Origin: an uncultured Patescibacteria group bacterium
GTDB taxonomy: Bacteria; Patescibacteriota; Minisyncoccia; Phycocordibacterales; UBA918
Direction: 5' to 3'
NCBI GenBank assembly: GCA_934699595.1
Contig: CAKUWT010000002.1
Location: forward strand, 37,065 to 101,064
DNA: 64,000 nt
Position numbers and translations under genes: made by a program. This document shows positions 5,299 through 33,830 of the stretch, in pieces; position 1 is the first letter of the stretch; the number at the start of each line of letters is the position of its first letter. A model generated the notes under the pieces. That model did no database searches. It was given only the letters and a program-made list of their open reading frames with translations, and was not told the origin of the DNA.

Positions 5299-6240
5299 AT
5301 GTTAAAATGGATTGACATGGACTGGCAAACTTCATTGAAAGATTTTCAACAATATTTAGAAATTGAACGTGGTCGTAGTCAGGCGACGACTGAAAATTAT
5401 TTACGCTACTTGCGTAAGTATTTCCAGTTTGCCAAAATCAGTTCCCCGAGTGAGATTACTGAAGTTAGTGTTCGGGAGTGGCGGCTGCACTTAAACCGCT
5501 TACCAGGAACTAAAGTGGGTGGTCGTCAGGAACCGATGAAAAGACGAACTCAAAATTATTACTTGATAGCACTAAGAGCCTATTTAAAATTTTTACGAAT
5601 GCGCAATGTAGAGAGTTTGGCGCCAGAAAAAATCGAACTAGCCAAAGTGGCCTCGAGACAAATTGACATCATTACCGCTGCTGAGTTAGAGAGATTGTTG
5701 TTAGCTCCAGATCCGGCCACCCCGCAAGGCTTGCGTGATCGTGCTGTGCTACAGCTCCTCTTCTCGACGGGGCTTCGGGTATCTGAGTTGTGCTCTCTTA
5801 ACATTGACGATATTGATATGGAACGTGACGAGTTCTCGATTCGAGGTAAGGGAGAAAGGGTGCGGGTGGTGTTTTTGTCGGAGACTGCTAAGCGTATGAT
5901 TCGTGATTGGTTAGCGACGAGGGAAGATATTGAGGAGGCTCTTTTTATACAACTAGGAAAACGTAGCGCGGCCGATGGTAGTCGCCGGCTGCAGCCACGG
6001 GCAGTGCAGCGACTTTTGAAAAAGGCGGCAGTACTGGCTGGTATTACCCGTAAGGTGACACCACACACTATCCGTCACAGTTTCGCTACCGATTTGTTAA
6101 GAAACGGGGCCGACCTGCGAGCAGTTCAAAGCATGCTTGGACATGCTGACATCAGTACTACTCAGGTCTATACGCACGTGACTGATGCCCATTTACGAGA
6201 AGTTCATAAAAAATTTCATCACCGCAAAAATCAGGATTAG
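5299..6240 (+). CDS. Tyrosine site-specific recombinase, XerC/XerD family
   Basis: 313 aa with an N-terminal SAM-like domain and a C-terminal catalytic domain (RHSFAT..LLRNGADLRAVQSMLGHADISTTQVYTHV). Confidence 0.85.
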   Translation: MLKWIDMDWQTSLKDFQQYLEIERGRSQATTENYLRYLRKYFQFAKISSPSEITEVSVREWRLHLNRLPGTKVGGRQEPMKRRTQNYYLIALRAYLKFLRMRNVESLAPEKIELAKVASRQIDIITAAELERLLLAPDPATPQGLRDRAVLQLLFSTGLRVSELCSLNIDDIDMERDEFSIRGKGERVRVVFLSETAKRMIRDWLATREDIEEALFIQLGKRSAADGSRRLQPRAVQRLLKKAAVLAGITRKVTPHTIRHSFATDLLRNGADLRAVQSMLGHADISTTQVYTHVTDAHLREVHKKFHHRKNQD

Positions 6241-12765: not shown

Positions 12766-14235
12766 CTAAGTCACCTTGTGATTTCGAGCAATCGCTTGCA
12801 GGGCTTTAGCTTCCTCGTCAGCTAACAGCTTTTTGCCAGCAGCGGCAAGCTCTTCCAGCTCATCATCAGGGAGTAAGACTAACTCTTGCACCCGTTTCTC
12901 CAGATAATCGGCGGTATTCTTCTGTGGATCACTCAAGACTTCTTCCAAAAGGCTGTTTAATAATAAACCAAGCTTTTTACCAGGTTTTTCGTTGGTAACA
13001 CTCATGATTTTGCTGCCATCAATTTTCAATAAAGCGACAGAAATAGGGTCTCGGCGGGCTTCATCCACCATCGCTTGGTATTTTCGTAAGCGAAATGGCA
13101 GCGCTTTCGGTCTACCGGTGCCGATACGGTCACAAATACGCAGTTTTAACAAGTCGTCGATGTTCTCCTCCCCTACCCGCACAATCGTACGACGCACTGC
13201 CGCCAAGGTAATTTCATCTGGATCTGAGAAAAACATATGCCAGCGCACCAAAGTCACTACTTTGTCACTAATTTCTTTAGGAATACGCAATGAAGCCAAG
13301 ATTTCCTTAGTCATCTTCGCCCCCACTACTTCGTGACCGAAGAAGGTGTAGTGTTTGTTTTTACCTCCCGTACGTCTGGTGGCCGGTTTACCAATGTCGT
13401 GGAATAGAGCGGCTAATTTGAGGGTGTAACTGTAGTTCTTGTCACTGGCGGCCTGCAGTGAGCGTAACAAGTGCTCATAAACATCGTATTTATGCACCCC
13501 GCCCTGCTCACAGCCGATAGTGGGCAGTAATTCTGGTACCACGTACTGCAGAAGACCAAATTTTTCCAATAGAATAATGCCATACATTGGTTTATCAGAA
13601 GCGATAATCTTAGAAAACTCACTACCGATCCGTTCTCGGGAGATTTGCTTAAGCTTAGCTGCTTGGTCGCAAATGCCGGCAATGGTGTCTGGCTCTATTA
13701 GGAAATCTAGTTGAGCTGCCAACCGTACCGCGCGGAGCATGCGGAGCGCGTCTTCAGCGAAACGTTCCCCAGGGTCACGAACAGCTCGTAAACGTCCCTC
13801 TCGTAGATCTCGCAGACCATTAAAGGGGTCAATAATCTGTAAATCAGTTACTCGAATAGCGATAGCGTTAACGGTAAAGTCACGCCTAGCCAAGTCTTCC
13901 TCTAAAGAGACCCCAAAAACAACAGAATCCGGCCGTCTGGCGTCACTGTAAGTGCCTTCTGCTCGATAGGGAGTTATTTCAATCACTTGGAGAGTGGGGT
14001 CTGGGTCCTCAGTTTTTACACCAACAGTACCGTAGTCGTTATTGCAAAAACTATCTGGAAAAATTGTCTGAATTTGCTCAGGAGTGGCGTTGGTGGTTAA
14101 ATCCCAGTCGTTTGGTTGGCGTTTGGTCAATAAATCGCGCACACAACCACCAATTAGGTAGGCGGTAAAACCAGCTTTTTCTAAATCATCGGCTAGGCTA
14201 TGAATGATCGCCGGGATATTTGTTTGAGAAACCAT
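12766..14235 (-). CDS. cca: CCA-adding tRNA nucleotidyltransferase, polymerase-beta head plus HD domain
   Basis: 489 aa with GGCVRDLLL..DWDL at the N-terminus and an HD motif (LFHDIGKP). Confidence 0.85.
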   Translation of the reverse strand: MVSQTNIPAIIHSLADDLEKAGFTAYLIGGCVRDLLTKRQPNDWDLTTNATPEQIQTIFPDSFCNNDYGTVGVKTEDPDPTLQVIEITPYRAEGTYSDARRPDSVVFGVSLEEDLARRDFTVNAIAIRVTDLQIIDPFNGLRDLREGRLRAVRDPGERFAEDALRMLRAVRLAAQLDFLIEPDTIAGICDQAAKLKQISRERIGSEFSKIIASDKPMYGIILLEKFGLLQYVVPELLPTIGCEQGGVHKYDVYEHLLRSLQAASDKNYSYTLKLAALFHDIGKPATRRTGGKNKHYTFFGHEVVGAKMTKEILASLRIPKEISDKVVTLVRWHMFFSDPDEITLAAVRRTIVRVGEENIDDLLKLRICDRIGTGRPKALPFRLRKYQAMVDEARRDPISVALLKIDGSKIMSVTNEKPGKKLGLLLNSLLEEVLSDPQKNTADYLEKRVQELVLLPDDELEELAAAGKKLLADEEAKALQAIARNHKVT

Positions 14236-14316
14236 AATCGACGATATTATAACAAATATTATTGCTTTTTCCCTATTTTAGACGTATGATGGCTGACGAA
14301 AGCGAATACGCTAACT

Positions 14317-14388
14317 GCACCCATGGTGAAATGGATATCACAACTGACTTCGGATCAGTCGTTCTGGGTTCGAGTCCTGGTGGGTGCA
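14317..14388 (+). tRNA. tRNA-Arg(TCG)
   Basis: Folded by hand. The acceptor is GCACCCA/TGGGTGC, the D stem GTGA/TCAC, and the anticodon stem ACTGA/TCAGT with loop CTTCGGA. The T arm is CTGGG-TTCGAGT-CCTGG. No CCA is encoded. Confidence 0.75.
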
Positions 14389-14440
14389 CAATCGTTACTT
14401 AATTTTATTACGTAACAAAACTTCCTAGAGATAATAAAAC

Positions 14441-14635
14441 ATTATTTGGGCAGAAACAGTGTAAAGACACTGTTTCTGAGACTAGTACCACCAGGGCATT
14501 TCTATTTTTATAGTCGGACTATCGTCCTTCTTAAAAATAAGTCAAGCCCGATTGAGATATTTCTAAGGCGACAGCCGAAAGAAATATCCAATTGGGGTAC
14601 TGAACCTGTAAGGTTCGAGTCCTGGTTGGGGTAAA
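14441..14635 (+). repeat. tRNA-associated modular repeat element, copy A, ending in a degenerate copy of the tRNA-Arg 3' half
   Basis: tttgggCAGAAACAGTG-taaaga-CACTGTTTCTG hairpin at 14451-14478. A GATATTT...AAATATC stem-loop at 14556-14588. The end is GGTTCGAGTCCTGGTTGGGG, compared with the tRNA's GGTTCGAGTCCTGGTGGGTGC. Confidence 0.6.
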
Positions 14636-14771
14636 AGCCATTTACCTGGTTCGACTATGGAGGAAGGTCACTTAGTAGATTTGAAATCTCTCAGACGAAC
14701 AAAATATCCACTAGAATGACCGAAGTGGGTGGCTGTGTCCAATTTTTAAAAAATCACTATACTAAAGTATT

Positions 14772-15146
14772 ATGAAACTATACATTATTCCTGGTTTAGG
14801 TGAAAGCCTTGATGATTATCAATGGTTGGTTCTGTCGGGTGAACAACGTGGTTACGAGGTCGAGTTTCTTCCTTGGCAATTACCGGGGAACCTTTTGACC
14901 GAAATTATCAACCGTCCTCTGGTGCCTGGCTCAACAGTTTTTGGCTTCTCCGTCGGGGCTTTGATAGCCTATAAGCTAACAACACCGATGTAAAAAGGTA
15001 TCTATGCATCAATGTCGGAGATCCTTGAGGGCGATATTGAGCCAGTTTTAGATGAGGCGGTAAAGATCTTTGAATTTAAAACAGTTCAAGACTTTCGCTA
15101 CTTAACATATGGTGTACCAAAAGCGACTGAGTGGGTGCAGTTTTAA
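14772..15146 (+). pseudogene. Decayed alpha/beta serine hydrolase paralog of 18726..19334, interrupted by an in-frame TAA
   Basis: The 73-aa ORF has a GFSVGA nucleophile elbow and ends at the TAA at 14991. The same frame continues with ...FEFKTVQDFRYLTY, resembling the C-terminus of the intact hydrolase (KLVTFQDRNHFLL). The total is still too short for the fold. Confidence 0.4.
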
Positions 15147-15400
15147 GGTGAATTAGAACCTAGTTCCCGAGTGCATCAATTAGGGTCAGTACAGATAGTT
15201 CCCCAAACTGGTCACGAGCTAACTCCCGCTTATCAGGAATTGATACTTAGCGAGCTCTAGCTCTAAAGCTGGTATCAGAACCTCTTCTTATTAACAACCT
15301 GCTACTCTTCCCCTCACCCAGAGCTGCCTAATACCCCTCCCCAAAAAATGAACACTGGTGACTATCTTTGTAATAAAGATATTGTTATACTAAGTTACGA

Positions 15401-16090
15401 ATGACCGTAAAAAAACCCTATAAACAAAAGCTATATCAGGAAGCGCTTACTTTGAGGCAGCGTGGCTTTACCTATACTCAGATTGCAGAAATCTGTGGTA
15501 TTTCACGTGGAACCGTCAGTAATTGGCTAAAAGACCACTCTTTTTCCCAGCGAGTAGCTTTAGATAATCAAAAAAGAGCTGTCAGGCAGAATAAGGAGCG
15601 TCTAAAACTAGTTAACAAAACTAGAGCTAATGAACGCCAACGACAGCTGGCTGAAATGGTTCGTCACGCCACTGTGGAGTTTAAGAATTATCAGTCCTCT
15701 CCCCTGTTTATGAGCGCTTTAGCGCTTTATGCCGGTCACGCTGATCATAAAGCAACTAATCAGGTGCGCTTTAGTAGCAATCAAGTCGAGCTTCATTTAA
15801 TCTTTAAACGGTTCCTGCTCAAATACGCTGGCGTTACCAACGAACGTTTACGTCTCGCTCTGCAAATACCAGAAACAGCTAACCAAGAACGGTGCCGAAA
15901 ATATTGGGCGCAGAAACTAGGACTAAAAGCTAATCAGTTCTACAAAATCCAGCTTATCCCTAGGGGTCACACCAGTAGACCGTTGCATTTTGGGACCGGA
16001 AACACTATAATCAATGATACTTTACTTCAAGCTAAGTTGCAGACCTGGGCAAAGCTCACTTTGCAGCAGCTGAGTAAAAAGAGTTCTTGA
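15401..16090 (+). CDS. Hypothetical protein with an N-terminal helix-turn-helix domain
   Basis: 229 aa. LRQRGFTYTQIAEICGISRGTVSNWLK resembles resolvase/terminase-small-subunit-type HTH. The C-terminal half is unassigned, with only a weak LAGLIDADG-like stretch (LYAGHADH). Confidence 0.45.
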   Translation: MTVKKPYKQKLYQEALTLRQRGFTYTQIAEICGISRGTVSNWLKDHSFSQRVALDNQKRAVRQNKERLKLVNKTRANERQRQLAEMVRHATVEFKNYQSSPLFMSALALYAGHADHKATNQVRFSSNQVELHLIFKRFLLKYAGVTNERLRLALQIPETANQERCRKYWAQKLGLKANQFYKIQLIPRGHTSRPLHFGTGNTIINDTLLQAKLQTWAKLTLQQLSKKSS

Positions 16091-16106
16091 TTAAGTTCAA
16101 TACATT

Positions 16107-16180
16107 GCGGCCATGGTTAAGTGGTATAACATGTCGTTGCCAACGATAAGTCGAGAGTTCGATTCTCTCTGGCCGCACCA
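16107..16180 (+). tRNA. tRNA-Gly(GCC) with genomically encoded CCA
   Basis: Hand fold. The acceptor is GCGGCCA/TGGCCGC, the D stem GTTA/TAAC, the anticodon loop TTGCCAA, and the T arm GAGAG-TTCGATT-CTCTC. The discriminator A is followed by CCA. Confidence 0.85.
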
Positions 16181-16231
16181 AAAGTGACCTAATCTTATTA
16201 CGTTAGGTATTCTCTATATTAAACAAACTTT

Positions 16232-16368
16232 ATTTGGGCAGAAACAGTCCGGGGGACTGTTTCTGAGAATCGAAGGGTTAGTCAGATATTTTAAGGTCTG
16301 ATAGGTGAACTAAAATATCGATAACCAGCACTGAACCCGTAGAGTCCGATTCCCTCTAGTCGCACCAA
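16232..16368 (+). repeat. tRNA-associated modular repeat element, copy B, ending in a degenerate copy of the tRNA-Gly(GCC) 3' half
   Basis: tttgggCAGAAACAGTC-cggggg-GACTGTTTCTG hairpin at 16239-16265. The 9-bp stem GATATTTTA...TAAAATATC covaries with copy A. The end is GAGTCCGATTCCCTCTAGTCGCACCA, compared with the tRNA's GAGTTCGATTCTCTCTGGCCGCACCA. Confidence 0.6.
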
Positions 16369-16768
16369 AGGGTAGTGTAATCCTGTTATAGTACACACTG
16401 TCTATTTATTGAAACTGGATGAATCTGTTGATCAAGGTCAGCCCCCACGTCGCTTACAGAGTATTAGTCATTAAATAGACAGGGTCCTCATAAACTCAGT
16501 ATTTGGACCCAGATCAGACCTATAGGCCTATAAGGGAAAAAGATAATAGACAAAAGTCGCCTCTGGGGACAAACCTGTGTATTTGTGGATAAGAGACAAT
16601 CGTCTTTTATGGATTATCTTATTTAGAGCCATATATTAAAAGACATAGTCAAAATATGGTCTTATTTAATGTTTCACGTGAAACAAGTTACACGAGAAAC
16701 AGTCTTTAGCTAGAACGATAACCAAGTATCATTTTAATTAGACCAGGCTGTGTGTTAAACTAGCCTCA

Positions 16769-17170
16769 GTGTCAAGGCTAAAAAATAAGCAAATTGGCAA
16801 TCTAGGAGAATCTGTTGTTGCAAATCACTTAGTGAGACATGGGTTCACTATTTTAGAACGAAATTACCTTAAAAAGTGGGGTGAAATTGACATTATTGCA
16901 GTCAAAAGCGATAAAGTGCATTTTATCGAAGTAAAAACTGTTTCATATGAAACAAAATCTCTATTAAAGTATGCTGTTACACATGAAACTTGGCGACCTG
17001 AAGAAATGGTGCATAAGCATAAACAAGAACGGTTTAAGCGAGTAATCGACACTTGGTTAAGCGCCACTAGTTATCAAGGAGATTGGCAAATTGATGTTAT
17101 CACCTTAAGAATTGTGCCACGTGAAACATACGCTGTTATAAAAGTCTTTGATAATTTAATCTTTGAGTGA
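16769..17170 (+). CDS. YraN/UPF0102-family putative endonuclease
   Basis: 133 aa with G..GE..A..HL...G..ILERNY....GEIDIIA....V.FIEVKT, the UPF0102 signature. Confidence 0.7.
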   Translation: MSRLKNKQIGNLGESVVANHLVRHGFTILERNYLKKWGEIDIIAVKSDKVHFIEVKTVSYETKSLLKYAVTHETWRPEEMVHKHKQERFKRVIDTWLSATSYQGDWQIDVITLRIVPRETYAVIKVFDNLIFE

Positions 17171-18117
17171 ACGCAGACATGTTACACGTGTAACTAAAAT
17201 GTCCGAATATTGAGATTTAGGACCAAAATTACGTTTTTATAAAAAACAAACATAAAATAAATGAGGACAGTCCTGCTGATAGTAGATAATTTTGTAATCT
17301 AGTTAAGAGCCAGTCATCTTTTGGGAGTAGAGGCGAGGGTTACACGTGTAACTGAATTCGCAGAAACGTAGGCTAGATTGAGCCGTCTTTGATCAGCACG
17401 CTAGAATAATGGACGTATTTATACCTGCTGGCACTACCTTCTTTAGGTAATTCTCAAAAAAAGAGAAGAAAAGGTTACCGACTGATTGGTCCAGGGCTGC
17501 CGGACTTACTGACTTGGTTAAAAAACTTCGAAATTCTTCTTGATAAACACTGCCTTGGTGCATTGGTTGAGATTACCGCTTAATTATAAGGTGATTTATG
17601 TAGAATTTACCGTTTTAGAAGTAAAAATGTTTCCCATGAAACGGCTTTTAAAAAAATAATACTTATAAATCGATCTTTGGGCAAAGACCTTAAGTCTTTG
17701 TTGGTACAACTTACTCGTTGGAATCAACTTTGGGTCATATTTTTCTAAAAAAGAGGATATAATACTTATTATACGCTGGAGTGCATCAGAAGTTTGGACT
17801 TAAATGCTATTCAGGTGTTACACGTGTAACTGGTTAGATTACAAAAATTCCAGAAACTAGTAGAATCGATATGAAATTTGGCAGAAACCGGTAAAAAACT
17901 GGCAATAACTTCTAATTATCTGTCATGGGGTTAGTTTCACGTGAAATATTTGTCTTGTGAGCTTCAGTTTAAATCTATGAGGGTTTTTGACTGGCGCAAA
18001 AGGTTAAGCAAATGGTGGAGGATTAACTGTTGTTGTATACATAGCGATATGTAATCGAACTGTGCGGTTTCAGCATGGATTGTCGATTTTTTACTTGCTA
18101 TTAAGTGGGTACTAGCC
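17171..18117. repeat. Roughly 950-bp noncoding stretch with no ORF of 60 aa or more, containing repeated 14-bp CACGTG-core palindromes and hairpin repeats
   Basis: GTTACACGTGTAAC occurs at 17181-17194, 17339-17352 and 17817-17830. GTTTCACGTGAAA(t) occurs at 17934-17946, and GTTTCACGTGAAAC lies upstream at 16671-16684. A tttgggCAAAGAC-cttaag-GTCTTTG hairpin sits near 17672-17700. Confidence 0.55.
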
Positions 18118-18390
18118 TGACTATAAAAATAGAAATGTCCTGGCGGTACTGTTCACAGAAACAGTCTCCCAGACTGTTTCTGCCCAGACAGAGTTGCTTC
18201 GCCTCTTAGCGTTAAATTGCTCACTAATATTCAGTAACCTAGATGTCGGGGAGCCGGGAATCGAACTCTACGAGTTCAGTATCCCAATTGGATATTTCCT
18301 TCGGCTGGCGCCTTAGAAATATCTCAATCGGGCTTCGATTCCTCAAGAATAGTCCCCCAGACTATTCTTGCCCAAACAACGTTAGGTTTT
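18118..18390 (-). repeat. tRNA-associated modular repeat element, copy C (minus orientation, split architecture), containing a copy of the tRNA-Pro 3' half
   Basis: On the minus strand, a tttgggCAAGAATAGTC-tgggg-GACTATTCTTG hairpin at 18345-18371 is followed by aatcgaagcccgattgagatatttctaagg and a tRNA-like end GTTCGATTCCCGGCTCCCCGACA at about 18245-18268. That end is identical to the tRNA-Pro 3' end. A second hairpin unit, CAGAAACAGTC-tgggag-GACTGTTTCTG with its agtaccgccaggacatttctatttttatag tail, lies at 18118-18185. Confidence 0.6.
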
Positions 18391-18436
18391 GTATCTGTAG
18401 TTATATGTTACTCACTAATATCCAGTAAGTCACTTG

Positions 18437-18507
18437 TCGGGGAGCCGGGAATCGAACCCGGGCCGCACGGTCCCAAACCGCGTACACTACCATTATGCTA
18501 CACCCCG
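18437..18507 (-). tRNA. tRNA-Pro(TGG)
   Basis: Hand fold of the minus strand. The acceptor is CGGGGTG/CTCCCCG with one T-T mismatch at 6:67. The anticodon loop is TTTGGGA and the T arm CCGGG-TTCGATT-CCCGG. No CCA is encoded. Confidence 0.7.
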
Positions 18508-18725
18508 AAATTGGCGTCGCTGTGCCAAAAATATATCACCTTTACGGTGAAAAAGCCAATCGGGACTGGAGAATAAGTAGAGTCAAAATTTAAGTTCAGT
18601 GCAGTTGCATAAGGTCTCTAGCAGATAAGTCAATAAATAGTGGTTCCAGCAGTCAATATTTAGTGAGTTGAATTAAGAAGTTTGTTATTAATCCCCAAAA
18701 TAGCTAAACTAACCAGACATAACAA

Positions 18726-19334
18726 ATGAAACAGGTATTTTTTATTCATGGCGGTAGCGCTTATTCCCGTTATGATGATTTCTTAGAAGCCTTAAAAACT
18801 AAGGAGTTGCGCTCAGTTACTGGAGAGTCCAGTGAGCGCTGGTCGGACAATTTGCGGCGAGATCTGGGTGGGCAGACGGAACTTTTTCAGCCCCGAATGC
18901 CTAATGCTGATAATGCGCAATATCAAGAGTGGCAAATTTGGTTTGAACGACATTTTTCTTATTTACTAGACGGAGTGATCTTGGTCGGCTGGTCTTTGGG
19001 AGGGATGTTCCTTGCTAAGTATTTGTTAGAGAATGATTTGCCGTTCCGTCCGAGCGCGTTGCTGCTCTTGGCGGCTCCTGCCGGAAGTTGTGCAAGCGAA
19101 GTTGGGGAAGATTGTGGCACTTTTCAATTTGATCCAGGCAGAATCGAGGAGTTGGCAACTAAAATGTCCAATATTCAGATTTGGCACTCGGAAGACGATT
19201 TTGTGGTACCTTACGCAGATGCTTTAGTCTATCAGGCGGCACTACCGCAGGCTAAACTGGTGACTTTCCAGGACCGAAACCACTTCTTGCTACCGCAGTT
19301 TCCAGAATTTATTGAAGCTATCCATAGTCTTTAA
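18726..19334 (+). CDS. Alpha/beta-fold serine hydrolase (YdeN/RBBP9-like)
   Basis: 202 aa with a GWSLGG nucleophile elbow and later Asp/His candidates (SEDDFVV, RNHF). Confidence 0.65.
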   Translation: MKQVFFIHGGSAYSRYDDFLEALKTKELRSVTGESSERWSDNLRRDLGGQTELFQPRMPNADNAQYQEWQIWFERHFSYLLDGVILVGWSLGGMFLAKYLLENDLPFRPSALLLLAAPAGSCASEVGEDCGTFQFDPGRIEELATKMSNIQIWHSEDDFVVPYADALVYQAALPQAKLVTFQDRNHFLLPQFPEFIEAIHSL

Positions 19335-19412
19335 GGTGTGCTCGGGTAACTTTTCCCGAAAAACAGCGTAAGAGTTCGGATTAACTAGCGTCTACGTATA
19401 TAATGGTTCCAT

Positions 19413-20018
19413 ATGAGAGAACAGCTGTCAGAACCCGGAAACCAGGAGAAAGACTTTCTAGAGGCCTTTCATCAGTACAACGATGCTCTTTTTAGGCACG
19501 CTTGGATGCGTATCAGTGATCGAGAGAAGGCGATTGACTTAGTGCATGACACCTTCACTAAGGTTTGGGGGTATATTCGTAACGGTAAGGAAGTAGAGCA
19601 GTACCGCCCTTTTCTTTATAAGGTCTTGAATAACCTTATTATTGATGAGTACCGGCGTAAGCGCGAAACCTCCTTAGATGCCCTCTTTGAGAAAGAGGGG
19701 GTAGATGAGGGAACTTTTCCTGAGTTATCAGAAAGTACTGCTGAAACCCTCGCGGCCACTATGGATGGGCAACAGGCCTTTGATTTGGTGGGAGAACTAC
19801 CAGATACTTACAAAGAAATTCTCATTTTACGGTTTGTTGATGGTTTGGGGCCAAAAGAGATCGGTGAGCTGGTGGAGGTGAGTGAAAACGTGGTCTCGGT
19901 GCGTTTGCATCGTGGTCTGAAGATGCTCCGAGAGAAGATTGAGTCTGAGAGTTTGGCGGCTGATGAGCGACGAGAGATCAAGAAAACCCGAGAAAAAAAT
20001 AAACATGCGAAGATTTAG
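19413..20018 (+). CDS. RNA polymerase sigma-70 factor, ECF subfamily
   Basis: 201 aa with a region-2 motif (FRHAWMRISDREKAIDLVHDTFTKVW) and region 4 (LILRFVDGLGPKEIGELVEVSENVVSVRLHRGLKMLR). Confidence 0.85.
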   Translation: MREQLSEPGNQEKDFLEAFHQYNDALFRHAWMRISDREKAIDLVHDTFTKVWGYIRNGKEVEQYRPFLYKVLNNLIIDEYRRKRETSLDALFEKEGVDEGTFPELSESTAETLAATMDGQQAFDLVGELPDTYKEILILRFVDGLGPKEIGELVEVSENVVSVRLHRGLKMLREKIESESLAADERREIKKTREKNKHAKI

Positions 20019-21342
20019 CGAACAATTTTATAAAAAAGCTCAGAGTGTTAAGTTGAGCATAGCGGAAAAGTCTGAACTAGAGAGACAGCTGCTTACTTAT
20101 ATTGAGTATCACCCGCTGGCGGCTACTAGTGTAGTAGCGGGACAGGCTGGGCAGCGAGTGGCTAGTCCGTGGTATCGCTACCTACTTGATTACCGAGCCG
20201 TTGGCGCTATGGCGGTGATGTTTTTAATGATTGGTATTCCTTTGTGGGCAGAAAGAACTTTGCCTGGTGATGTTTTGTACCCCGTTAAAGTTAAGGTTAA
20301 TGAGGAAGTCTGGAGTTCTCTAGCTAGAACACCTTACGAAAAGGTTGAGTGGGAGGGTGAGCGACTGGAACGACGGTTGTCTGAGGCCCGCAAGTTAGCT
20401 GATAGCGGACGTTTGACTCCTGAGTTGGAGGCAGAAGTGTCGGCTAATGTTTTAGCGCATGCTAAAAGTGCTGATCAAAGTTTGGCAAAGTTGCGGACTG
20501 AGGACGAGGCGAACGCTGATGCGGCTACGATGGCTTGGAATTCCAGTTTAGAAGCACAGGTGGCGATGTTAAGTTTGAGTAATGAGATTGAGGGAGAGTC
20601 TGACACCGGTATAGAGGCAAAGCCTCTGGTGGCCCTGGCGAGAACTTTGGGTGAGAGTCTTCCTGCAACCGATGTCACTTTAAAAGCAACTTATAACGAC
20701 CTGGTTGCGCAGCTAGACAAAGACTTTAAGAAGAATGAAACAGCCTTAGCAAAATTAAGGAAAGATCCGACCGTGGAAGCTGACTTTACCGCAATTGAGA
20801 AAAGTCTGAATGATCTACAGCAAATCGCTTCGACTATTTATGAGCAGTATTCAGAAATTGAGTCTGGACAGCAATCTGTAGATGATAAAGAGGCTCTTCT
20901 TAAAGAAAAACGTGACGCTCTACGTAAAATTCTTCGTGACAGCAAGAAGTTAAATATTTTCTTGACAGAGTTGGAAGTACGTAAAAAGATCACTATCGAC
21001 CAGGTTTTTCTGGATAATCTCGATACTAAAGCAGCGGTTAAAACTTTGCAGGCGGAGATTAGTAAGGATCTAGAAATTTTAAGAAAATGGTTAAGTGAGG
21101 AAAGTCGGTTGACAGCGGTAGAGAAGCAGACTCTGACCAATGATTTGGATCGGGCTGATCAGGCGATTTTTGTTGAAGATGTTAGTCTTGAGGAGTTAAA
21201 AAAGATAAGATCTGCCCTAGAGATAGAATTGAAACGAAAAGAAGAATTATCGCTAGGAGCGACTGGGGGAGAGGCGACTAACCAAGGGGCAGCAACCGGA
21301 ACGAAGTCTTTAGAATCTCCAAGTTGGATGTTGCCGAGATAA
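20005..21342 (+). CDS. Putative membrane-anchored anti-sigma factor-like protein with a large coiled-coil extracytoplasmic domain
   Basis: The ATG at 20005 overlaps the sigma stop codon, implying translational coupling. One TM helix (AVGAMAVMFLMIGIPLWA) is followed by a long K/E/L-rich helical region. The track's earlier start at 19939 is out of frame with the sigma gene. Confidence 0.45.
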   Translation: MRRFSEQFYKKAQSVKLSIAEKSELERQLLTYIEYHPLAATSVVAGQAGQRVASPWYRYLLDYRAVGAMAVMFLMIGIPLWAERTLPGDVLYPVKVKVNEEVWSSLARTPYEKVEWEGERLERRLSEARKLADSGRLTPELEAEVSANVLAHAKSADQSLAKLRTEDEANADAATMAWNSSLEAQVAMLSLSNEIEGESDTGIEAKPLVALARTLGESLPATDVTLKATYNDLVAQLDKDFKKNETALAKLRKDPTVEADFTAIEKSLNDLQQIASTIYEQYSEIESGQQSVDDKEALLKEKRDALRKILRDSKKLNIFLTELEVRKKITIDQVFLDNLDTKAAVKTLQAEISKDLEILRKWLSEESRLTAVEKQTLTNDLDRADQAIFVEDVSLEELKKIRSALEIELKRKEELSLGATGGEATNQGAATGTKSLESPSWMLPR

Positions 21343-21389
21343 TTTACAAAACTTGTAGAAAAAGCCTTTCCGAAACGGAAAGGCTTTTT

Positions 21390-22493
21390 CTACAGGTTTT
21401 GCTCTAGGAGACTGGTTAAGAATGGACTCATGATTTCATTAAAAATGTTTGCGCGGGTGGTGATGTTGCCGCTGATGTTAGTTTTGAGATTCGCGCCGGT
21501 TTCTTCGGTGATTGTGCGATCGATATGGCTTAAGGTAATGGCCCGCAAGCTCCCCACGCCCTCGGTTGCGTCGTTGCCACGAGTAGTAATAACACCGATG
21601 ACAGAATTATGACTGTTGGCTACCGGGCCGCCAGAAGCGCCGTGGTTGCCGAGTTCGCTTCCAGAAAGAGCGATAACATCAGCATAGCCGGAGCTAAAAG
21701 TGTATAGATTGGTAATGTTAGCGCTAGCAATACTAGGAATGAATAACCCCGTGCGCCCGTCGGTGAAAAGGCTGGTGGCCGGATAACCGGCTGCCCGGAC
21801 AGTGCTACCTTTGATAGAAGTTGGAAGCAGGTCAGTAGTAATAGCTAGAGCTGGGAAAGTATCGGGCAGAGGAGTTACTTCGTCAATATTGGCGGAAATA
21901 TAAAGAAGAGCGTAATCGCGCTCGCCAGTGCCGAGAGGAAGGGTGTCGTTGATCGCTGCAGCATGCTCTTGAATCCAGGCGGGTGAGATATACAGCAAAT
22001 CAGCTATATAATGTGCCACTGCCGGTGATCCGGTGCGCACCACGCAGGACGCCGAGTCTAGATAATCAGTATTTTTCAGCAGTAGAAACTGTGCTACATG
22101 AGCGTTGGTGAGAATAACTCCTTGGTTGCTGATGAAAAAGCCTGTTCCGGTAGTGGTGCGGAGGCTGTCTTTGGTAGTAATGGTGCAAAAAATATTTACT
22201 AAAGCCTCTAAGGGGTTGTTGGTGTAGGTGGGTTGGGTGCCAGTACTGCCGACAAGGTTAGCTTGTTGATAGCGAAGACTGTTTAGGAGGATATCAGGAA
22301 TGGGCAGGGTTTTGTTGGAGAGCGACTGGTTAATGAGAAGGCTGTCGCGATGAGGTGGAAATAAAGCGGTAAGACTGTTGGTGTCATTGAAATACTGCCA
22401 CCCCCAAAGGCTGCCCAAGAGTGCGGTCAGTACCAGTAAAACCTTTAAACTAGTTGACATAGTTGTGCTAATTGTAGCATGGGTGGAGGCCAT
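21390..22493 (-). CDS. Secreted or membrane-anchored trypsin-like (S1/chymotrypsin-fold) serine protease
   Basis: 367 aa with an N-terminal hydrophobic signal/anchor. His is in TNAHV and Ser in GNHGASGGPV, a GDSGGP-like motif. Confidence 0.6.
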   Translation of the reverse strand: MASTHATISTTMSTSLKVLLVLTALLGSLWGWQYFNDTNSLTALFPPHRDSLLINQSLSNKTLPIPDILLNSLRYQQANLVGSTGTQPTYTNNPLEALVNIFCTITTKDSLRTTTGTGFFISNQGVILTNAHVAQFLLLKNTDYLDSASCVVRTGSPAVAHYIADLLYISPAWIQEHAAAINDTLPLGTGERDYALLYISANIDEVTPLPDTFPALAITTDLLPTSIKGSTVRAAGYPATSLFTDGRTGLFIPSIASANITNLYTFSSGYADVIALSGSELGNHGASGGPVANSHNSVIGVITTRGNDATEGVGSLRAITLSHIDRTITEETGANLKTNISGNITTRANIFNEIMSPFLTSLLEQNL

Positions 22494-22569
22494 TGGTGCT
22501 GGCGATAGTGAGGCGGCTGTGCTAGAATGCAGGGAACTTTTTATAAAGTTGTGCGAAAAAATAGGATTT

Positions 22570-22640
22570 GCGGGTGTAGTTTAGTGGTAAAACGACTGCC
22601 TTCCAAGCAGTAGTCGGGAGTTCGATTCTTCTCACCCGCA
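22570..22640 (+). tRNA. tRNA-Gly(TCC)
   Basis: Hand fold. The acceptor is GCGGGTG/CACCCGC, the D stem GTTT/AAAC, and the anticodon stem ACTGC/GCAGT with loop CTTCCAA. The T arm is GGGAG-TTCGATT-CTTCT. Confidence 0.8.
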
Positions 22641-22770
22641 CGAGTACAAAAATGAGCGTCCCGTCAGGGCGCCATTTTTGTTCGTGCGGGTGAAGGGAGT
22701 CAACTGCTTGGCTTCCGGGAAGAATCGAAAGGCGGAGCCATGTCGCCTTGCGACAAGTGAGCCGGGGTCG

Positions 22771-22952
22771 AGAACACTTAGTAGATTTGGAGGCGTCAGC
22801 CGAACAAATATACTTAGTGATTCGTGACCGATTCGTATCGCCCTCACTCGCACTAGATGATTTACTAGATATTAAGTAAGTCATAAAACTTTAAATAATT
22901 AACCAAGCACTGTCTGGGGTACTGAGCCCATAAGCTTCGATTCTTCTCAAAC
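22771..22952 (+). repeat. tRNA-associated repeat element, copy D, ending in a degenerate copy of the tRNA-Gly(TCC) 3' half
   Basis: cacttagtagatttgg...cagccgaacaaatatac is also present at 14679-14725. Then ctGGGGTACTGAgcccataaGCTTCGATTCTTCTCAaac ends it, compared with the tRNA's GAGTTCGATTCTTCTCACCCGC. A 5'-like fragment tgcgggtgaaggg lies at about 22684. Confidence 0.5.
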
Positions 22953-22979
22953 AAACCTTCTTACATTAAGATAACCACT

Positions 22980-24077
22980 ATGAATATCATTACTAATCTA
23001 CAGAAACTCGTTGCTTTTCCTACCGAGACGGGGCGGAAGACGGAGACTTTGTCACTGTTTTCCTTTGTGCGGTCGGAGCTGGCAGATTTGCCACTACATT
23101 TTACTGAGCGCGAGTATCAGAATTTTCCTGCCTTACTCATCACTACTCGCGATACTAAGACGCCGAAGATCTGGCTCTACTGTCATGTTGACGTGGTGCC
23201 GGCAACGACCGAGCAATATCAAGCGATTGAACAGAATGGTCGGCTTTATGGCCGGGGAGTCTTTGATATGAAATTTGCTCTGGCATCTTACCTCAGCCTC
23301 TTTCGTGAGTTAGGCGAGAGTCTGACTGATTTTGATTTGGGAATCATGCTGGTCAGTGATGAGGAGGTGGGCGGCTTTAACGGAGCTAATCGGTTACAGC
23401 AAGAAGGTTTTTTGTCGAAGGTAATTATTATCCCGGACGGTGGCGATGATTTGCGCGTAGAAACCAAAGCTAAAGGCATATGGCATTTAACCATTCGAGC
23501 GGAGGGTAGGGGTGCGCATGGTTCGCGTCCGTGGGAGGGGGAGAACGCGATTGAGCAGCTGAGTGATTATTTGACCGCTTTACGTCAAGCAGTGTGTCAT
23601 CAAGATAAAACTGAAAAGTGGTGTCGTACTCTCAGTACAGGCATGATCACGGGTGGACAAGCGGTCAACCAGGTACCAGATTATGCTGAGGCAAAGATTG
23701 ATATCCGACTTATTTCTAATGAGGAGAAAACGGAAATTGAGCACATCTTTACCAGTTTGCAGGCAGAGTATCCGCGGGTGACGGTGGAGACTGATATGTT
23801 GGGGAGTTGTGTAAATACCGACATTAATAATCACTATTACCAATCATTCGTGGAAATTACAGAAAGTATTACTGGAGTGGAGCACGTGCCTGTTTGTAGC
23901 TATGGCGCTAGCGATGCCCGGTTTTTTGTATCTGATATGCCCGCGATTATCACTAGACCGACTGGTGGCGGTATGCATGGAGCGGAGGAGTGGCTCGATT
24001 TGGCTAGCTTTGCCAAATTCCATCAGATCATCATGGCGTTTGTACAGCAGAACGGACAGATTGATGTTGGTGATTAG
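22980..24077 (+). CDS. M20-family metallopeptidase (ArgE/DapE-like deacylase)
   Basis: 365 aa with LYCHVDVVPA, GRGVFDMK and SDEEVGG motifs. Confidence 0.8.
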   Translation: MNIITNLQKLVAFPTETGRKTETLSLFSFVRSELADLPLHFTEREYQNFPALLITTRDTKTPKIWLYCHVDVVPATTEQYQAIEQNGRLYGRGVFDMKFALASYLSLFRELGESLTDFDLGIMLVSDEEVGGFNGANRLQQEGFLSKVIIIPDGGDDLRVETKAKGIWHLTIRAEGRGAHGSRPWEGENAIEQLSDYLTALRQAVCHQDKTEKWCRTLSTGMITGGQAVNQVPDYAEAKIDIRLISNEEKTEIEHIFTSLQAEYPRVTVETDMLGSCVNTDINNHYYQSFVEITESITGVEHVPVCSYGASDARFFVSDMPAIITRPTGGGMHGAEEWLDLASFAKFHQIIMAFVQQNGQIDVGD

Positions 24078-25385: not shown

Positions 25386-25832
25386 ATGATGAAATTAATG
25401 AAAGAACGTGGTTTCACCCTCATCGAACTCTTGGTGGTGATTGCCATTATTGGTATTCTCGCCGCTGTAGTCTTAGCTTCACTTAACGATGCACGTAAGT
25501 CTGGTAATGATGCTGCTCTAAAACAATCGATGGCGTCACTAAGATCACAGGCGGAGATTTTCTATAATGAAAATAGTTTTTCTTACAGCGGTTTCTGTGC
25601 CACCTTGGCTACCGGTCAGCCAAACGCAGCTCTAGCTGCCTCAATTCAGAACAATAGTAACGGGGCAGGTGCTCCTGTGTGTGTGCAAAATACCAGTGGC
25701 ACAGGTTGGGCAACCACAGCTATTATATCTTCAGGTAGAAAGTGGTGTGTAGATAGTACTGGAGTGGCTAGGGATATTGCTGCTGCGGCTACAACCCCTA
25801 CAAATGCGGACCCTACTTGTCCAGCTTCTTAA
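25386..25832 (+). CDS. Type IV major pilin, copy 1
   Basis: 148 aa with the prepilin leader MMKLMKERG followed by FTLIELLVVIAIIGILAAVVL, and C-terminal Cys pairs. Confidence 0.85.
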   Translation: MMKLMKERGFTLIELLVVIAIIGILAAVVLASLNDARKSGNDAALKQSMASLRSQAEIFYNENSFSYSGFCATLATGQPNAALAASIQNNSNGAGAPVCVQNTSGTGWATTAIISSGRKWCVDSTGVARDIAAAATTPTNADPTCPAS

Positions 25833-25854
25833 TTTAGTATAAAAACCAAATAAT

Positions 25855-25884
25855 AAAACAAGACCCGTATCCGGGTCTTGTTTT
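25855..25884 (+). terminator. Rho-independent terminator after pilin 1
   Basis: AAAACAAGACCCG-TAT-CCGGGTCTTGTTTT. Confidence 0.65.
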
Positions 25885-26053
25885 ATTATGATTAACTGTC
25901 CCAGTTATATATACCTAGGAGTTATGCACAGACAAAAATAATTACCATACTGGATATAGAGGTTTCTTGTATACTTAAAAAAGATTAAGGTATACAGCTG
26001 TTACCTGAATCAAACTGATAACAAACCTTATCAATAAAAATTTAAGAATCAAT

Positions 26054-26494
26054 ATGATGAAATTAATGAAAGAACGTGGTTTCACCCTCATCGAACTCTT
26101 GGTGGTGATCGCTATTATCGGTATTCTCGCCGCTGTAGTCTTAGCTTCACTTAATGACGCCCGTAAGTCTGGTAATGATGCCGCTTTGAAACAGTCGATG
26201 GCGTCGGTGCGGTCGCAAGCAGAAATTCATTATAATGAAAATGGCTTTTCTTATGCCACTTTCTGTGACAGTGGTACATTGGCTTCTGCCAATGCAGCCT
26301 TGCGTGATTCTATTAGGAATAATAGCAGCGACAACACTAATCCCGTTTGTACTTCGAGTGCAGATGCCTGGGCGGCCTCAGCTAGGATTTCTGACAATCC
26401 CGGTACTACCGCTCGCTATTGGTGTGTAGATAGTACGGGTGCGGCCAGAGAGGGGACGACTGCTCTAGGATCTAGCGCGACAGTTTGTCCGTAG
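26054..26494 (+). CDS. Type IV major pilin, copy 2
   Basis: 146 aa. The first roughly 60 codons and 71 nt of upstream sequence are near-identical at the nucleotide level to copy 1. The C-terminus is divergent. Confidence 0.85.
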   Translation: MMKLMKERGFTLIELLVVIAIIGILAAVVLASLNDARKSGNDAALKQSMASVRSQAEIHYNENGFSYATFCDSGTLASANAALRDSIRNNSSDNTNPVCTSSADAWAASARISDNPGTTARYWCVDSTGAAREGTTALGSSATVCP

Positions 26495-26510
26495 ACCGCT
26501 AGTCTTGAGG

Positions 26511-26549
26511 AAAACAAAAACCGCCATCTTTGATGGCGGTTTTTGTTTT
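26511..26549 (+). terminator. Rho-independent terminator after pilin 2
   Basis: AAAACAAAAACCGCCATC-TTTG-ATGGCGGTTTTTGTTTT. Confidence 0.65.
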
Positions 26550-26575
26550 CCTAAGTATGTTATTATTTGAGGACA

Positions 26576-27043
26576 ATGAGATTGTGCCAATTACAGCTAG
26601 GTAAACAGCGGGGTTTCACCCTCATCGAACTCTTGGTGGTGATTGCAATTATCGGTATTCTGGCTGCCGTAGTTTTAGCTTCATTAAATAGTGCCCGCAA
26701 ACAAGGGAATGATGCTGCTCTAAAACAATCGATGGCGTCACTAAGATCACAGGCGGAGATTTATTACCTAAGAAGTAATTTTACTTACGACGGTTTCTGC
26801 GACACGTTAACCTCCGGAAAAGTTAATGCGCACTTAGGAGATTCGATTAAGAAAAACAGCAACAACAACACTGCTCCAGTTTGTAATGATGAGGATCAGG
26901 TTTGGGCTGCCTCGGCACAGATATCTCCACAGGGTGTAGTGAGCCGCTATTGGTGTGTAGACAGCACGGGAGTCGCCAAGGAGCAGGCTTCTGCTTTGGC
27001 TGGCATGGCTGGCGCACCCGCGGTCGACACCCAGTGTTTGTAA
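26576..27043 (+). CDS. Type IV major pilin, copy 3 (longer leader peptide)
   Basis: The ATG at 26576 gives MRLCQLQLGKQRG|FTLIELLVVIAIIGILAAVVL. The track's TTG at 26567 is an alternative start. The C-terminal half is divergent. Confidence 0.8.
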   Translation: MRLCQLQLGKQRGFTLIELLVVIAIIGILAAVVLASLNSARKQGNDAALKQSMASLRSQAEIYYLRSNFTYDGFCDTLTSGKVNAHLGDSIKKNSNNNTAPVCNDEDQVWAASAQISPQGVVSRYWCVDSTGVAKEQASALAGMAGAPAVDTQCL

Positions 27044-29234: not shown

Positions 29235-29732
29235 ATGCCTGATCCGACCAAAACACAGCCTGATTTTTCTCGAGAAGAGATGATTATGCCTAAAGACGAT
29301 AGTGGAATACGACTAGTTCCTGCGGCCAAGGTGAGTAAATCAGTTAGCAAGGTTTTTGTGGTGACAGCGCTTGGTCTATTGTTGGTAACAGCGCTAATCA
29401 TCCTGGGCGCACTGTTTCTACCCAAGGTTGATTGGCGGCAATGGCTTGCGGGGTCGTCGGCAGATTTTGTTGTTGAAGAAAAAGTGCCTCCATTTATGGT
29501 CAAAACAGAAGCACCTGAAAAAAATCAGGATTTGGAAGATTTGATGAAATATAGTGAATCAACAGATTTGGAAGCAATCGCTACCGATTTGGCCGCAACT
29601 GATTTTAGAAATATTTTACTGGAGGTGAACCAGATCGAGCGTGAGATCAAGGCTGATCTAGCTACTAGCGCTAGCAGTAGCGACCCTGCTCTCCATGTTG
29701 GTGATGAGGATGAAGCGGAAGAAGAGAGATAG
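29235..29732 (+). CDS. Hypothetical single-pass membrane protein with an acidic C-terminus
   Basis: 165 aa with TM VFVVTALGLLLVTALIILGALFL and a D/E-rich tail. Confidence 0.35.
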   Translation: MPDPTKTQPDFSREEMIMPKDDSGIRLVPAAKVSKSVSKVFVVTALGLLLVTALIILGALFLPKVDWRQWLAGSSADFVVEEKVPPFMVKTEAPEKNQDLEDLMKYSESTDLEAIATDLAATDFRNILLEVNQIEREIKADLATSASSSDPALHVGDEDEAEEER

Positions 29733-33822: not shown

Positions 33823-33830
33823 GTGGTCCT

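Follow-up and report, generated by a model that had tools for sequence, protein, structure and literature searches.

Certain integrative elements and genomic islands have their bacterial attachment site (attB) in the 3' part of tRNA genes and leave attL and attR direct repeats, and the stretch from the T-loop to the 3' end is a classic sublocation of tyrosine integrases within these tRNA attachment (att) sites. Recognition by base pairing is found in IS608, in which a guide inside the element binds its target or the cleavage site over ~4 nucleotides (nt). Retrotransposons that target tRNA genes in compact eukaryotic genomes (e.g., Dictyostelium TRE and yeast Ty3) are described in PMC5006619, and tRNA gene fragments in PMC9897764. 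The subject of the present analysis is element B, a segment directly behind a tRNA-Gly(GCC) gene in 64,000 nt of DNA from an uncultured Patescibacteria group bacterium (assembly GCA_934699595.1, contig CAKUWT010000002.1, positions 37,065 to 101,064; this whole 64-kb stretch is called the window, and positions refer to it). The reading tentatively preferred here, at a rough probability of 45%, is that B, partly decayed, belongs to a lineage-wide family of elements of ~100-250 nt that are non-coding and strongly folded and lie directly 3' of tRNAs in Kaiserbacteria-like Patescibacteria, and that these elements are mobile and non-autonomous; the family is filed as non-autonomous elements targeting tRNA gene flanks. 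Mobility is favored because the elements are present or absent at orthologous sites, occur as tandem and nested copies, have displaced older tRNA trailers, and possess near-identical cores at different tRNAs.

Comparison with Known Systems

Read 5' to 3', a complete member of the family consists of the tRNA, a terminator-like hairpin that begins directly after A73-C74 of the tRNA, a segment complementary to the 3' strand of the acceptor stem (anti-acceptor), a hairpin (hp2), a segment complementary to the T-loop and the 3' strand of the T-stem (anti-T), a two-armed domain of one of two types (type 1 or type 2), and a copy of the tRNA 3' end (the mimic) that starts with the T-loop and extends to the discriminator or CCA. 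The mimic pairs back on both complementary segments and on the foot of the last arm, such that the whole element is a branched rod. The family shares with tRNA-att islands a repeat from the T-loop to the 3' end that bounds the insert, an intact tRNA, empty sites, and tandem accretion. It differs from them in the absence of an integrase or any gene, the small size of the insert (100-250 nt), the use of one architecture for many tRNA species, a repeat that is base-paired within a conserved fold, the presence inside the insert of the same tRNA end in inverted form, and at least one repeat that does not represent the local allele. With IS200/IS605-type single-strand transposons, their gene-less derivatives (PATEs), and REP/RAYT hairpin repeats, the elements have in common a small, gene-less body made up of hairpins that count on one strand only, many copies, nesting, insertion beside a specific sequence without a short duplication, and a frequent position at gene 3' ends. 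However, the pairing in the present family covers 10-24 nt and is split by a hairpin, the target is a tRNA 3' end, the fold contains a three-way junction with invariant unpaired bases, and no Y1/HUH transposase is linked to the elements or present in the window.

Complete members also rebuild the acceptor helix of the neighboring tRNA on a T-stem-like helix, in the same orientation and beside the tRNA, and thereby resemble plant mitochondrial t-elements, the MALAT1 mascRNA, and the tRNA-like domain of tmRNA. In contrast to these, an extended helix and a 60-120 nt domain stand in place of the T-loop, D and anticodon arms are missing, most type-2 copies (including B) have no acceptor helix, and tRNA and tmRNA models miss the element. 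An internal complement of the 3'-terminal 18-24 nt of a tRNA, in some cases with CCA (e.g., TGGTGCGGCCAGAG in locus L028 of a relative), recalls the primer-binding sites of retroviruses and long terminal repeat (LTR) retrotransposons, but here there is no reverse transcriptase or LTR, the complement is split by a hairpin, the tRNA end also occurs in cis as a sense copy, and the cognate tRNA gene adjoins. The tRNA flank as a safe landing site in a gene-dense genome is common to TRE and Ty3 (PMC5006619), which are protein-coding and targeted through Pol III factors, unlike the gene-less bacterial element, whose position is apparently specified by base pairing.

The element is previously undescribed in Rfam, the searched viral contigs, and the searched literature. 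In Rfam 15, only tRNAs reached the gathering score, and nothing credible appeared at E<=1 (positions 14200-23100) or at E<=10 (one type-1 locus); the hammerhead, hatchet, pistol, twister, and hepatitis delta virus classes, tmRNA, T-box, and Y-RNA were dropped because Rfam gave only tRNAs and noise. Two scans of viral contigs for conserved type-2 patterns returned five loci, none with a model hit or a tRNA, which are chance matches, and full-text literature searches gave no description of such an element. Guides of the C/D and H/ACA type were rejected (no boxes, no unpaired target base), as were group I/II introns (the elements are far too small) and a CRISPR-like repeat-spacer array (the "spacers" are homologous to each other).

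Anatomy of Element B

The tRNA-Gly(GCC) gene occupies positions 16107-16180 of the plus strand (ARAGORN; 68.9 bits with the Rfam tRNA model), with its T-loop at 16158-16164, the 3' strand of the T-stem at 16165-16169, the 3' strand of the acceptor stem at 16170-16176, the discriminator at 16177, and an encoded CCA at 16178-16180. Element B follows immediately on the same strand as a partly decayed type-2 copy of 187 nt (16181-16367), delimited by a covariance model and alignments. The model R1, built from relatives, matches B at 16261-16365 (72.4 bits, E ~6e-21), and no real open reading frame (ORF) lies within 16181-16367. Directly 3' of the tRNA is a trailer hairpin (ACCTAA/TTAGGT, 16187-16208) homologous to those behind the tRNA-Arg, tRNA-Pro, and tRNA-Gly(TCC) genes and behind internal copies; in relatives, this position is taken by a terminator composed of an A-run, a hairpin, and a T-run. 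The family hairpin with a YGGGR-type loop, hp2, spans 16239-16265 and has 11 bp in B (CAGAAACAGTC at 16239-16249, loop CGGGG, GACTGTTTCTG at 16255-16265). The anti-T segment GAGAATCGAA (16265-16274) forms the 5' strand of helix P1, is followed by the invariant junction AA, and is complementary at 10/10 positions to the T-loop/T-stem of the actual tRNA (TTCGATTCTC, 16158-16167), compared with a poorer 8/10 for the mimic of B itself. Within the P2/P3 arm (16276-16326; RNAalifold, pair counts, and single-sequence fold), GGTTA (16276-16280) pairs with TAACC (16322-16326) and GATATTTTA (16285-16293) with TAAAATATC (16311-16319). The conserved junction ACUG and hairpin P4 (GAACC, loop CGUAG, AGUCC) occupy 16330-16347, and P4, a small hairpin built with the first bases of the tRNA-end copy, retains 3/5 pairs in B; it is intact in two further copies of the window, C1 (GAACU/AGUUC) and A (GAACC/GGUUC). 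The mimic TCCGATTCCCTCTAGTCGCACCA (16345-16367) runs from the T-loop through CCA, provides the 3' strand of P4 and P1, and is identical to the tRNA (TTCGATTCTCTCTGGCCGCACCA, 16158-16180) at 19 of 23 positions, the remaining four being transitions.

All motifs that the original prediction, made by a model from the letters alone, had placed here are present, i.e., the hairpin, the sequence gaatcgaag (16267-16275), the 9-bp stem, ACTGAACCCGTAGAG (16330-16344), and the tRNA-end copy, which does carry the encoded CCA along. That copy is real, not a chance match, and has four mismatches instead of about five. The sequence gaatcgaag, which had been described as a linker, overlaps the anti-T segment, the complement of the tRNA T-loop/T-stem. 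The architecture had been called the same as that of copy A, and the covariance model matches both, while A differs by an insert of ~75 nt and a damaged complement.

B has no anti-acceptor segment and lacks two of the five P4 pairs and two P1 pairs. An acceptor-like helix cannot form in B or C1, the T-stem of the B mimic cannot form either, and the T-loop part of this mimic, which would be a loop in a tRNA-like structure, is paired. B is a worn, degenerate type-2 member and probably inactive; the interest lies in the family.

Distribution among Relatives

The relatives are represented by 80 syntenic loci of ~20 kb from metagenome-assembled genomes of Candidatus Kaiserbacteria, Paceibacteria, and other Patescibacteria, fetched via the neighboring CCA-adding enzyme (55-68% protein identity), and the census covers 204 tRNAs with enough flanking sequence. 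A copy of the tRNA's own T-loop-to-discriminator stretch (at least 15/20) lies downstream of 63/204 tRNAs versus upstream of 3/213, and the 3' end of another tRNA species gives a match of at least 15/20 in 9/204 cases. The anti-T segment (at least 10/12) was found downstream of 79/204 tRNAs versus upstream of 1/201, with an anti-acceptor (at least 7/8) just 5' of it in 29 of these 79 (37%). Altogether, 101 of the 204 tRNAs have a copy, an anti-T, or both downstream. Perfect mimics comprise six copies at 24/24 and twenty at 20/20, and the same architecture, matched to each tRNA, recurs behind Arg, Gly, Pro, and Ala tRNAs. Most model matches (55/67) fall within 600 nt 3' of a same-strand tRNA, and single 20-kb loci such as L028 and L063 contain up to 5-8 of them. 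None of the ~100 elements, which measure 100-250 nt, contains an ORF.

Empty sites, for which the original prediction had proposed to search, do exist in relatives: 25 of 59 orthologous tRNA-Gly(GCC) loci carry neither copy nor complement, and the others carry type 1, type 2, or both. The opposite outcome, a relative in which the same segment belongs to a functional second tRNA, was not encountered, since ARAGORN detected no extra tRNA there in 81 loci; in the window, ARAGORN and Rfam detect only four canonical tRNAs and nothing in the elements. The 20-kb loci contain no convincing second repeat at kilobase distance and no convincing island. Neither copy nor complement accompanies any of 73 unrelated metagenome tRNA genes that share the 28-nt 3' end exactly, which means that the phenomenon belongs to the lineage and not to the sequence. 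The underlying search returned 79 contigs (marine, gut, and other) whose sole use was that of a negative control; upstream of the match, the displayed sequences differed from tRNA-Gly(GCC) and resembled tRNAs with a long variable arm. A metagenome search for close relatives of the exact tRNA-Gly(GCC) gave no matches, and an exact-protein lookup of the neighboring YraN-like protein gave only an identical 3.6-kb contig.

Conserved Fold

Covariation demonstrates a conserved branched fold. For type 2, to which B, A, and C1 belong, an alignment of 28 members analyzed with RNAalifold yields a three-way junction of helices P1-P4, in which P1 pairs the anti-T with CGAUU and part of the T-stem of the mimic, and is followed by the junction AA, the P2/P3 arm, the junction (G)UACUG, and P4, a 5-bp hairpin with the loop YGUAR in which the mimic supplies the 3' strand with its first bases (nnUUC); P2/P3 and P4 together make up the type-2 domain. 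Compensatory changes occur in 26 of 27 pairs among the 28 sequences and in 27/27 on 81 model hits, where 92.2% of cells are paired as opposed to 60.7% after shuffling and 37-49% with the partners slid. The unpaired AA, ACNG, and GUA are invariant in type 2. G:U exceeds A:C on the tRNA-sense strand by 69 to 30, an excess that points to selection of the structure on this strand, as RNA or single-stranded DNA (the two are not separable in this way), and that selection of the hits by the model may inflate. In type 1, the outer helix P0 is formed by the anti-acceptor and the acceptor copy, there is no T-loop, and the mimic contributes its first bases to the foot of the last arm, where GACC:GGTT (Gly) covaries to GTC:GAC (Pro). 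Loop motifs of the form UGAGC..GCGAA recur in both domain types. The acceptor helix of the tRNA is rebuilt exactly in complete members (L032, L048, L039, L071, and L028, with copies of 24/24), and the complement segment of L028 also covers the discriminator and CCA. The anti-T varies with the tRNA, being GAGAATCGAA for Gly(GCC), GGAATCGAA for Pro, and GAAGAATCGAA for Gly(TCC).

Signs of Insertion and Mobility

At least six comparisons of orthologous loci show that what follows the distal copy is in register with the post-tRNA trailer of a relative without that element, and that the new proximal flank differs (L051 and L071 versus L039 for tRNA-Arg; L062/L063 and L039/L046 for tRNA-Gly; L051/L052 for tRNA-Pro; L049/L047 for tRNA-Arg), a pattern that indicates displacement of the old flank by insertion. 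At tRNA-Arg, for example, L039 has GGGTGCAC followed by CAAGG, while L051 and L071 have GGGTGCAC followed by TTAAAAT, the element, and again GGGTGCAC with CAAGG. The left end GAGTACAAAA always stands directly after ..GCAC (five loci, two tRNA species). Hairpins are located at both ends of the element (terminator/hp2 and P4), there are no classical terminal inverted repeats, and the repeat makes the boundary ambiguous. At a given tRNA, one domain type can stand in place of the other, and many copies are decayed, truncated, tandem, or nested; tandem arrays are found in the window (C1 with C2, D1 with D2) as well as in L071, L027, and L039.

Orphan cores, composed of hp2, GCAAGA, P2/P3, UGNACAG, and P4, occur away from tRNA 3' flanks (L053 3098-3198, minus strand; L063 15843-15930, plus; L043 9553-9651, minus; L036 9595-9692, minus). 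One orphan lies in the T-loop of a pseudo-tRNA-Gly, another in a 40-nt piece duplicated from the 5' part of an msrA-like ORF, and two within type-1 elements, at an internal GGGGT/CGAG that resembles a T-loop. The 5' flank of the orphans ends in (G)T in 8/8 cases, and their junctions show no target duplication. The nearest relative of a core is located in another genome for 24 of 27 cores, often at another tRNA species (74-93% identity). A (Arg) and C1 (Pro) share 90% identity in their cores, with ends that are Arg- and Pro-specific; overall, core similarity within and between genomes (0.63 versus 0.61) does not differ significantly, and the higher similarity within a genome held only for A and C1 of the window.

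Taken by themselves, the junction data are compatible with a crossover by an integrase, with a long duplication of the target, and with an element carrying the mimic as its own right end. Compensated pairs and the tRNA-Gly(TCC) locus of L051 suggest, with moderate confidence, that the mimic belongs to the element and is not duplicated target. In L051, 13 bp connect the anti-T TGGTAATCGAAACC with the mimic GGTTTCGATTACC, and both agree with the L053 allele, whereas the T-arm of the local tRNA-Gly(TCC) is different and internally consistent (TCGGG-TTCGATT-CCCGG). Because the mimic matches a foreign allele, neither a crossover in the local T-loop nor a duplication of the local target can yield it. 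A second foreign-allele case, at tRNA-Gly(GCC) of L051, involves a single position, and confidence is moderate because there is one clear locus and one single-position case. The att-type duplication of the original prediction is supported in part: it stands as an insertion-linked repeat with CCA, empty sites, and displaced trailers, and is probably not an integrase scar, the repeat being part of a structured, lineage-wide element.

Proposed Mechanism and Alternative Explanations

If the elements are mobile, their active form would be a folded single strand (RNA or single-stranded DNA), whose internal complements would identify a tRNA gene's 3' end through base pairing. The element would then insert just behind the tRNA, a safe and tolerated site in a compact genome, bringing its own terminator and served by an enzyme acting in trans. 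A more far-reaching proposal, which must be called doubtful, is a self-guided mobile RNA gene with a bipartite anti-acceptor/anti-T guide split by hp2, or else a new class of RNase P/Z-matured tRNA mimics that controls tRNA 3' maturation. A self-guided element would pair its guide with the 3' terminus of the tRNA gene or transcript and direct insertion directly behind it; guide and paired mimic would be re-specified for each tRNA species, no enzyme would be encoded by the element, and candidate trans factors would be a conserved protein resembling helix-turn-helix (HTH)-LAGLIDADG proteins, encoded 5' of the same tRNA genes, or the Xer-type recombinase of the window. This resembles the logic of bridge RNAs and of IS200/IS605 guide pairing, with the difference that no enzyme is encoded by the element here.

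If the mobile, non-autonomous reading is true, roughly every second tRNA gene sampled from a large clade of uncultured, ultra-small bacteria is followed by a structured element, which would represent a compact, apparently programmable way of finding safe sites by base pairing in a streamlined genome, as well as a natural test case for the retargeting of non-coding mobile elements. If the elements are instead functional RNAs, they would form a new tRNA-linked RNA class in organisms with reduced RNA-processing machinery. In the annotation of Candidate Phyla Radiation (CPR) genomes, mimic strands, some of which encode CCA, can be confused with tRNA fragments or with the att sites of islands or prophages, and the covariance models built here could be used to mask or map the elements.

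Several observations weigh against a mobile, non-autonomous family. No transposase, reverse transcriptase, or dedicated integrase was found in or near the elements in the window, and neither an excised form nor a fresh identical insertion was observed. The similarity of cores between genomes could reflect purifying selection on a functional RNA instead of transfer. A complement and copy that are both matched to the tRNA would call for a postulated retargeting or cassette-exchange step. A terminator-like hairpin lies between tRNA and element in 81 of 101 cases according to a loose detector, which argues against strong co-transcription. An exchanged tRNA gene could also explain the L051 case. 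At positions where copy and tRNA disagree, compensating changes in the complement are not clearly commoner than the lack of them, and whether the anti-T follows the copy or the tRNA varied with element selection and alignment register. The limits of the G:U excess given above also belong here.

The main rival explanation, possible if rather unlikely, is a functional tRNA-linked non-coding RNA, read through from the tRNA and spread by duplication and gene conversion, with mobility being secondary; it and the mobile-element reading are not mutually exclusive. In one variant, the acceptor-like helix (anti-acceptor plus acceptor copy, stacked on the T-stem-like helix) would serve as a handle for RNase P, RNase Z, or the CCA-adding enzyme, and in another, the element would act as a switch whose complements pair either with the 3' half of the real tRNA or with the decoy copy, controlling tRNA maturation. 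A functional RNA would account for the constant downstream position in tRNA orientation, the strong covariation with invariant unpaired bases and loop motifs common to both domain types, the surplus of G:U pairs on the sense strand, the acceptor helix that complete members rebuild exactly, the ~92% complementarity of the anti-T to the real tRNA (a biased estimate), and persistence across relatives whose CCA-adding enzymes are only 55-68% identical. It is harder to reconcile with the patchy distribution (approximately half of the orthologous tRNAs lack the element), with domain types that swap at the same tRNA, and with the many decayed, truncated, tandem, and nested copies. Moreover, the anti-acceptor is present in only 37%, the element is usually preceded by a terminator-like hairpin, no acceptor-like helix is possible in B and C1, and the Rfam and ARAGORN tRNA models recognize no part of the element.

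The remaining explanations concern the origin of the repeat. A classical att duplication, in which an integrase element recombined within the T-loop-to-3' part and supplied a new 3' end, with the old end remaining as attR and the interior lost, would explain a direct repeat from the T-loop to the 3' end, the empty sites, the old trailer behind the distal copy, and a tandem accretion like the arrays of cis-mobilizable elements. A tyrosine recombinase, the sole recombinase of the window, is also present (5299-6240, plus strand), but it has an Xer-like domain pair (Phage_integrase and a SAM-like N-domain), lies ~8 kb from the tRNA cluster, and is tied to the sites or elements by nothing observed. 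This explanation is improbable given elements of consistent size and architecture, unlike random deletion remnants, in which ORFs, a second repeat at kilobase distance, and matches in viral contigs are all missing; the repeat is structurally paired with compensatory changes, and a T-loop crossover at tRNA-Gly(TCC) of L051 could not leave a working tRNA. A long target-site duplication, produced by a transposase or Cas1-like enzyme making staggered cuts ~20-50 bp apart (in the T-loop and behind the tRNA) followed by gap repair, would yield perfect copies such as the six at 24/24 and the twenty at 20/20, and would automatically match the copies to each tRNA while the cores are shared, for which A and C1 are the clearest case; the duplicated stretch behind tRNA-Pro even reaches 50 nt into the trailer. 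Such a duplication leaves the equally tRNA-specific internal complements unexplained, and its likelihood is further lowered to a slim chance by the foreign allele copied at tRNA-Gly(TCC) of L051, the orphan-core junctions without target duplication, the lack of a casposase or Cas1 in the window, and trailer hairpins that are homologous between different tRNAs and hence belong to the element. That no element exists at all, i.e., that a local tandem tRNA duplication has decayed into a pseudo-tRNA amid chance hairpins, receives almost no credence, although one relative does have a true pseudo-tRNA beside tRNA-Gly(TCC) (L053 3098-3198): only the last 23 nt of the tRNA are repeated, and the covariance-model match and the 80 relatives refute this idea. 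The segments that look like tRNA 5' strands also complement the discriminator and CCA (TGGTGCGGCCAGAG, L028), meaning that they are inverted and not direct copies of the tRNA; a direct copy of the 5' strands was rejected on the same grounds.

Other Copies and Neighboring Genes in the Window

All four tRNA genes of the window (ARAGORN, Rfam) are followed by related elements, which amount to six copies (A, B, C1, C2, D1, and D2), and the elements behind these tRNAs end in a copy of the 3' end of their own tRNA. Copy A (14390-14636, plus strand), a type-2 element behind tRNA-Arg(TCG) (14317-14389, plus), copies the Arg 3' end at 19/24 positions and is matched by the covariance model at 14532-14634 (71.6 bits); its extra insert of ~75 nt bears an Arg-type anti-acceptor/T segment (GTACCACCAGGGC), and its complement segment is damaged. 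Distal to A lies an older type-1 remnant (GGTCACTTAGTAG...GACCGAAGTGGGTGGC, 14637-14722, plus), compared by eye with D1 and the type-1 set. The best-preserved type-2 copy of the window is C1 (18244-18435, minus) behind tRNA-Pro(TGG) (18436-18507, minus), with a perfect 20-nt copy of the tRNA-Pro 3' end (TTCGATTCCCGGCTCCCCGA) and a model match at 18245-18347 on the minus strand (86.2 bits). Copy C2 (18040-18243, minus) follows C1 in tandem and is non-cognate within this Pro array because it has an Arg-type anti segment (GTACCGCCAGGAC) and kinship with A, with which it shares 56 nt at 86%. Behind tRNA-Gly(TCC) (22570-22641, plus) stands D1 (22642-22850, plus), a full type-1 element with, in order, the terminator, the anti-acceptor GTGCGGGTGA, the hairpin, the anti-T GAAGAATCGAA (11/11), the domain, and a decayed 3'-end copy, followed by D2 (22851-22950, plus), a type-2 deletion derivative in which the trailer hairpin precedes CTGTCTGGG fused to GTACTGAGCCCATAAGCTTCGATTCTTCTC. 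The occurrence of GGGTAGAAACAGT at 29411 is a chance match inside a coding region.

A third type of element, ~75 nt long, was noted behind tRNA-Pro(TGG) in L043, L049, L063, L039, and L052; it contains the hairpin GACCAACAAGC..GCTTGTTG, and its end copies the acceptor strand together with the complete T-arm. Some relatives retain only the first half of this element.

Apart from the Xer-type recombinase, the window contains housekeeping, competence, and pilus genes. Pilin-like genes, a type IV pilus ATPase, a platform protein, and ComEC (25386-27043, 32068-35060, and 43585-45261) constitute a DNA-uptake (competence) apparatus, which could bring in single-stranded DNA with such elements. Between element A and the HTH gene, an ORF of 73 amino acids (14772-14993, plus) has the start of an alpha/beta-hydrolase with a GFSVG nucleophile elbow and an early stop, and looks like a truncated gene fragment; a full-length serine hydrolase of 202 amino acids is encoded at 18726-19334 (plus). 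The palindrome GTTACACGTGTAAC / GTTTCACGTGAAAC occurs at least five times in the intergenic regions of 16660-17950 (e.g., 17181-17196, 17339-17354, and 17817-17832), at sites that flank the YraN-like gene (16769-17170), and the same motif is found in the equivalent intergenic regions of relatives, where, as in the window, it is probably an operator or promoter-associated site.

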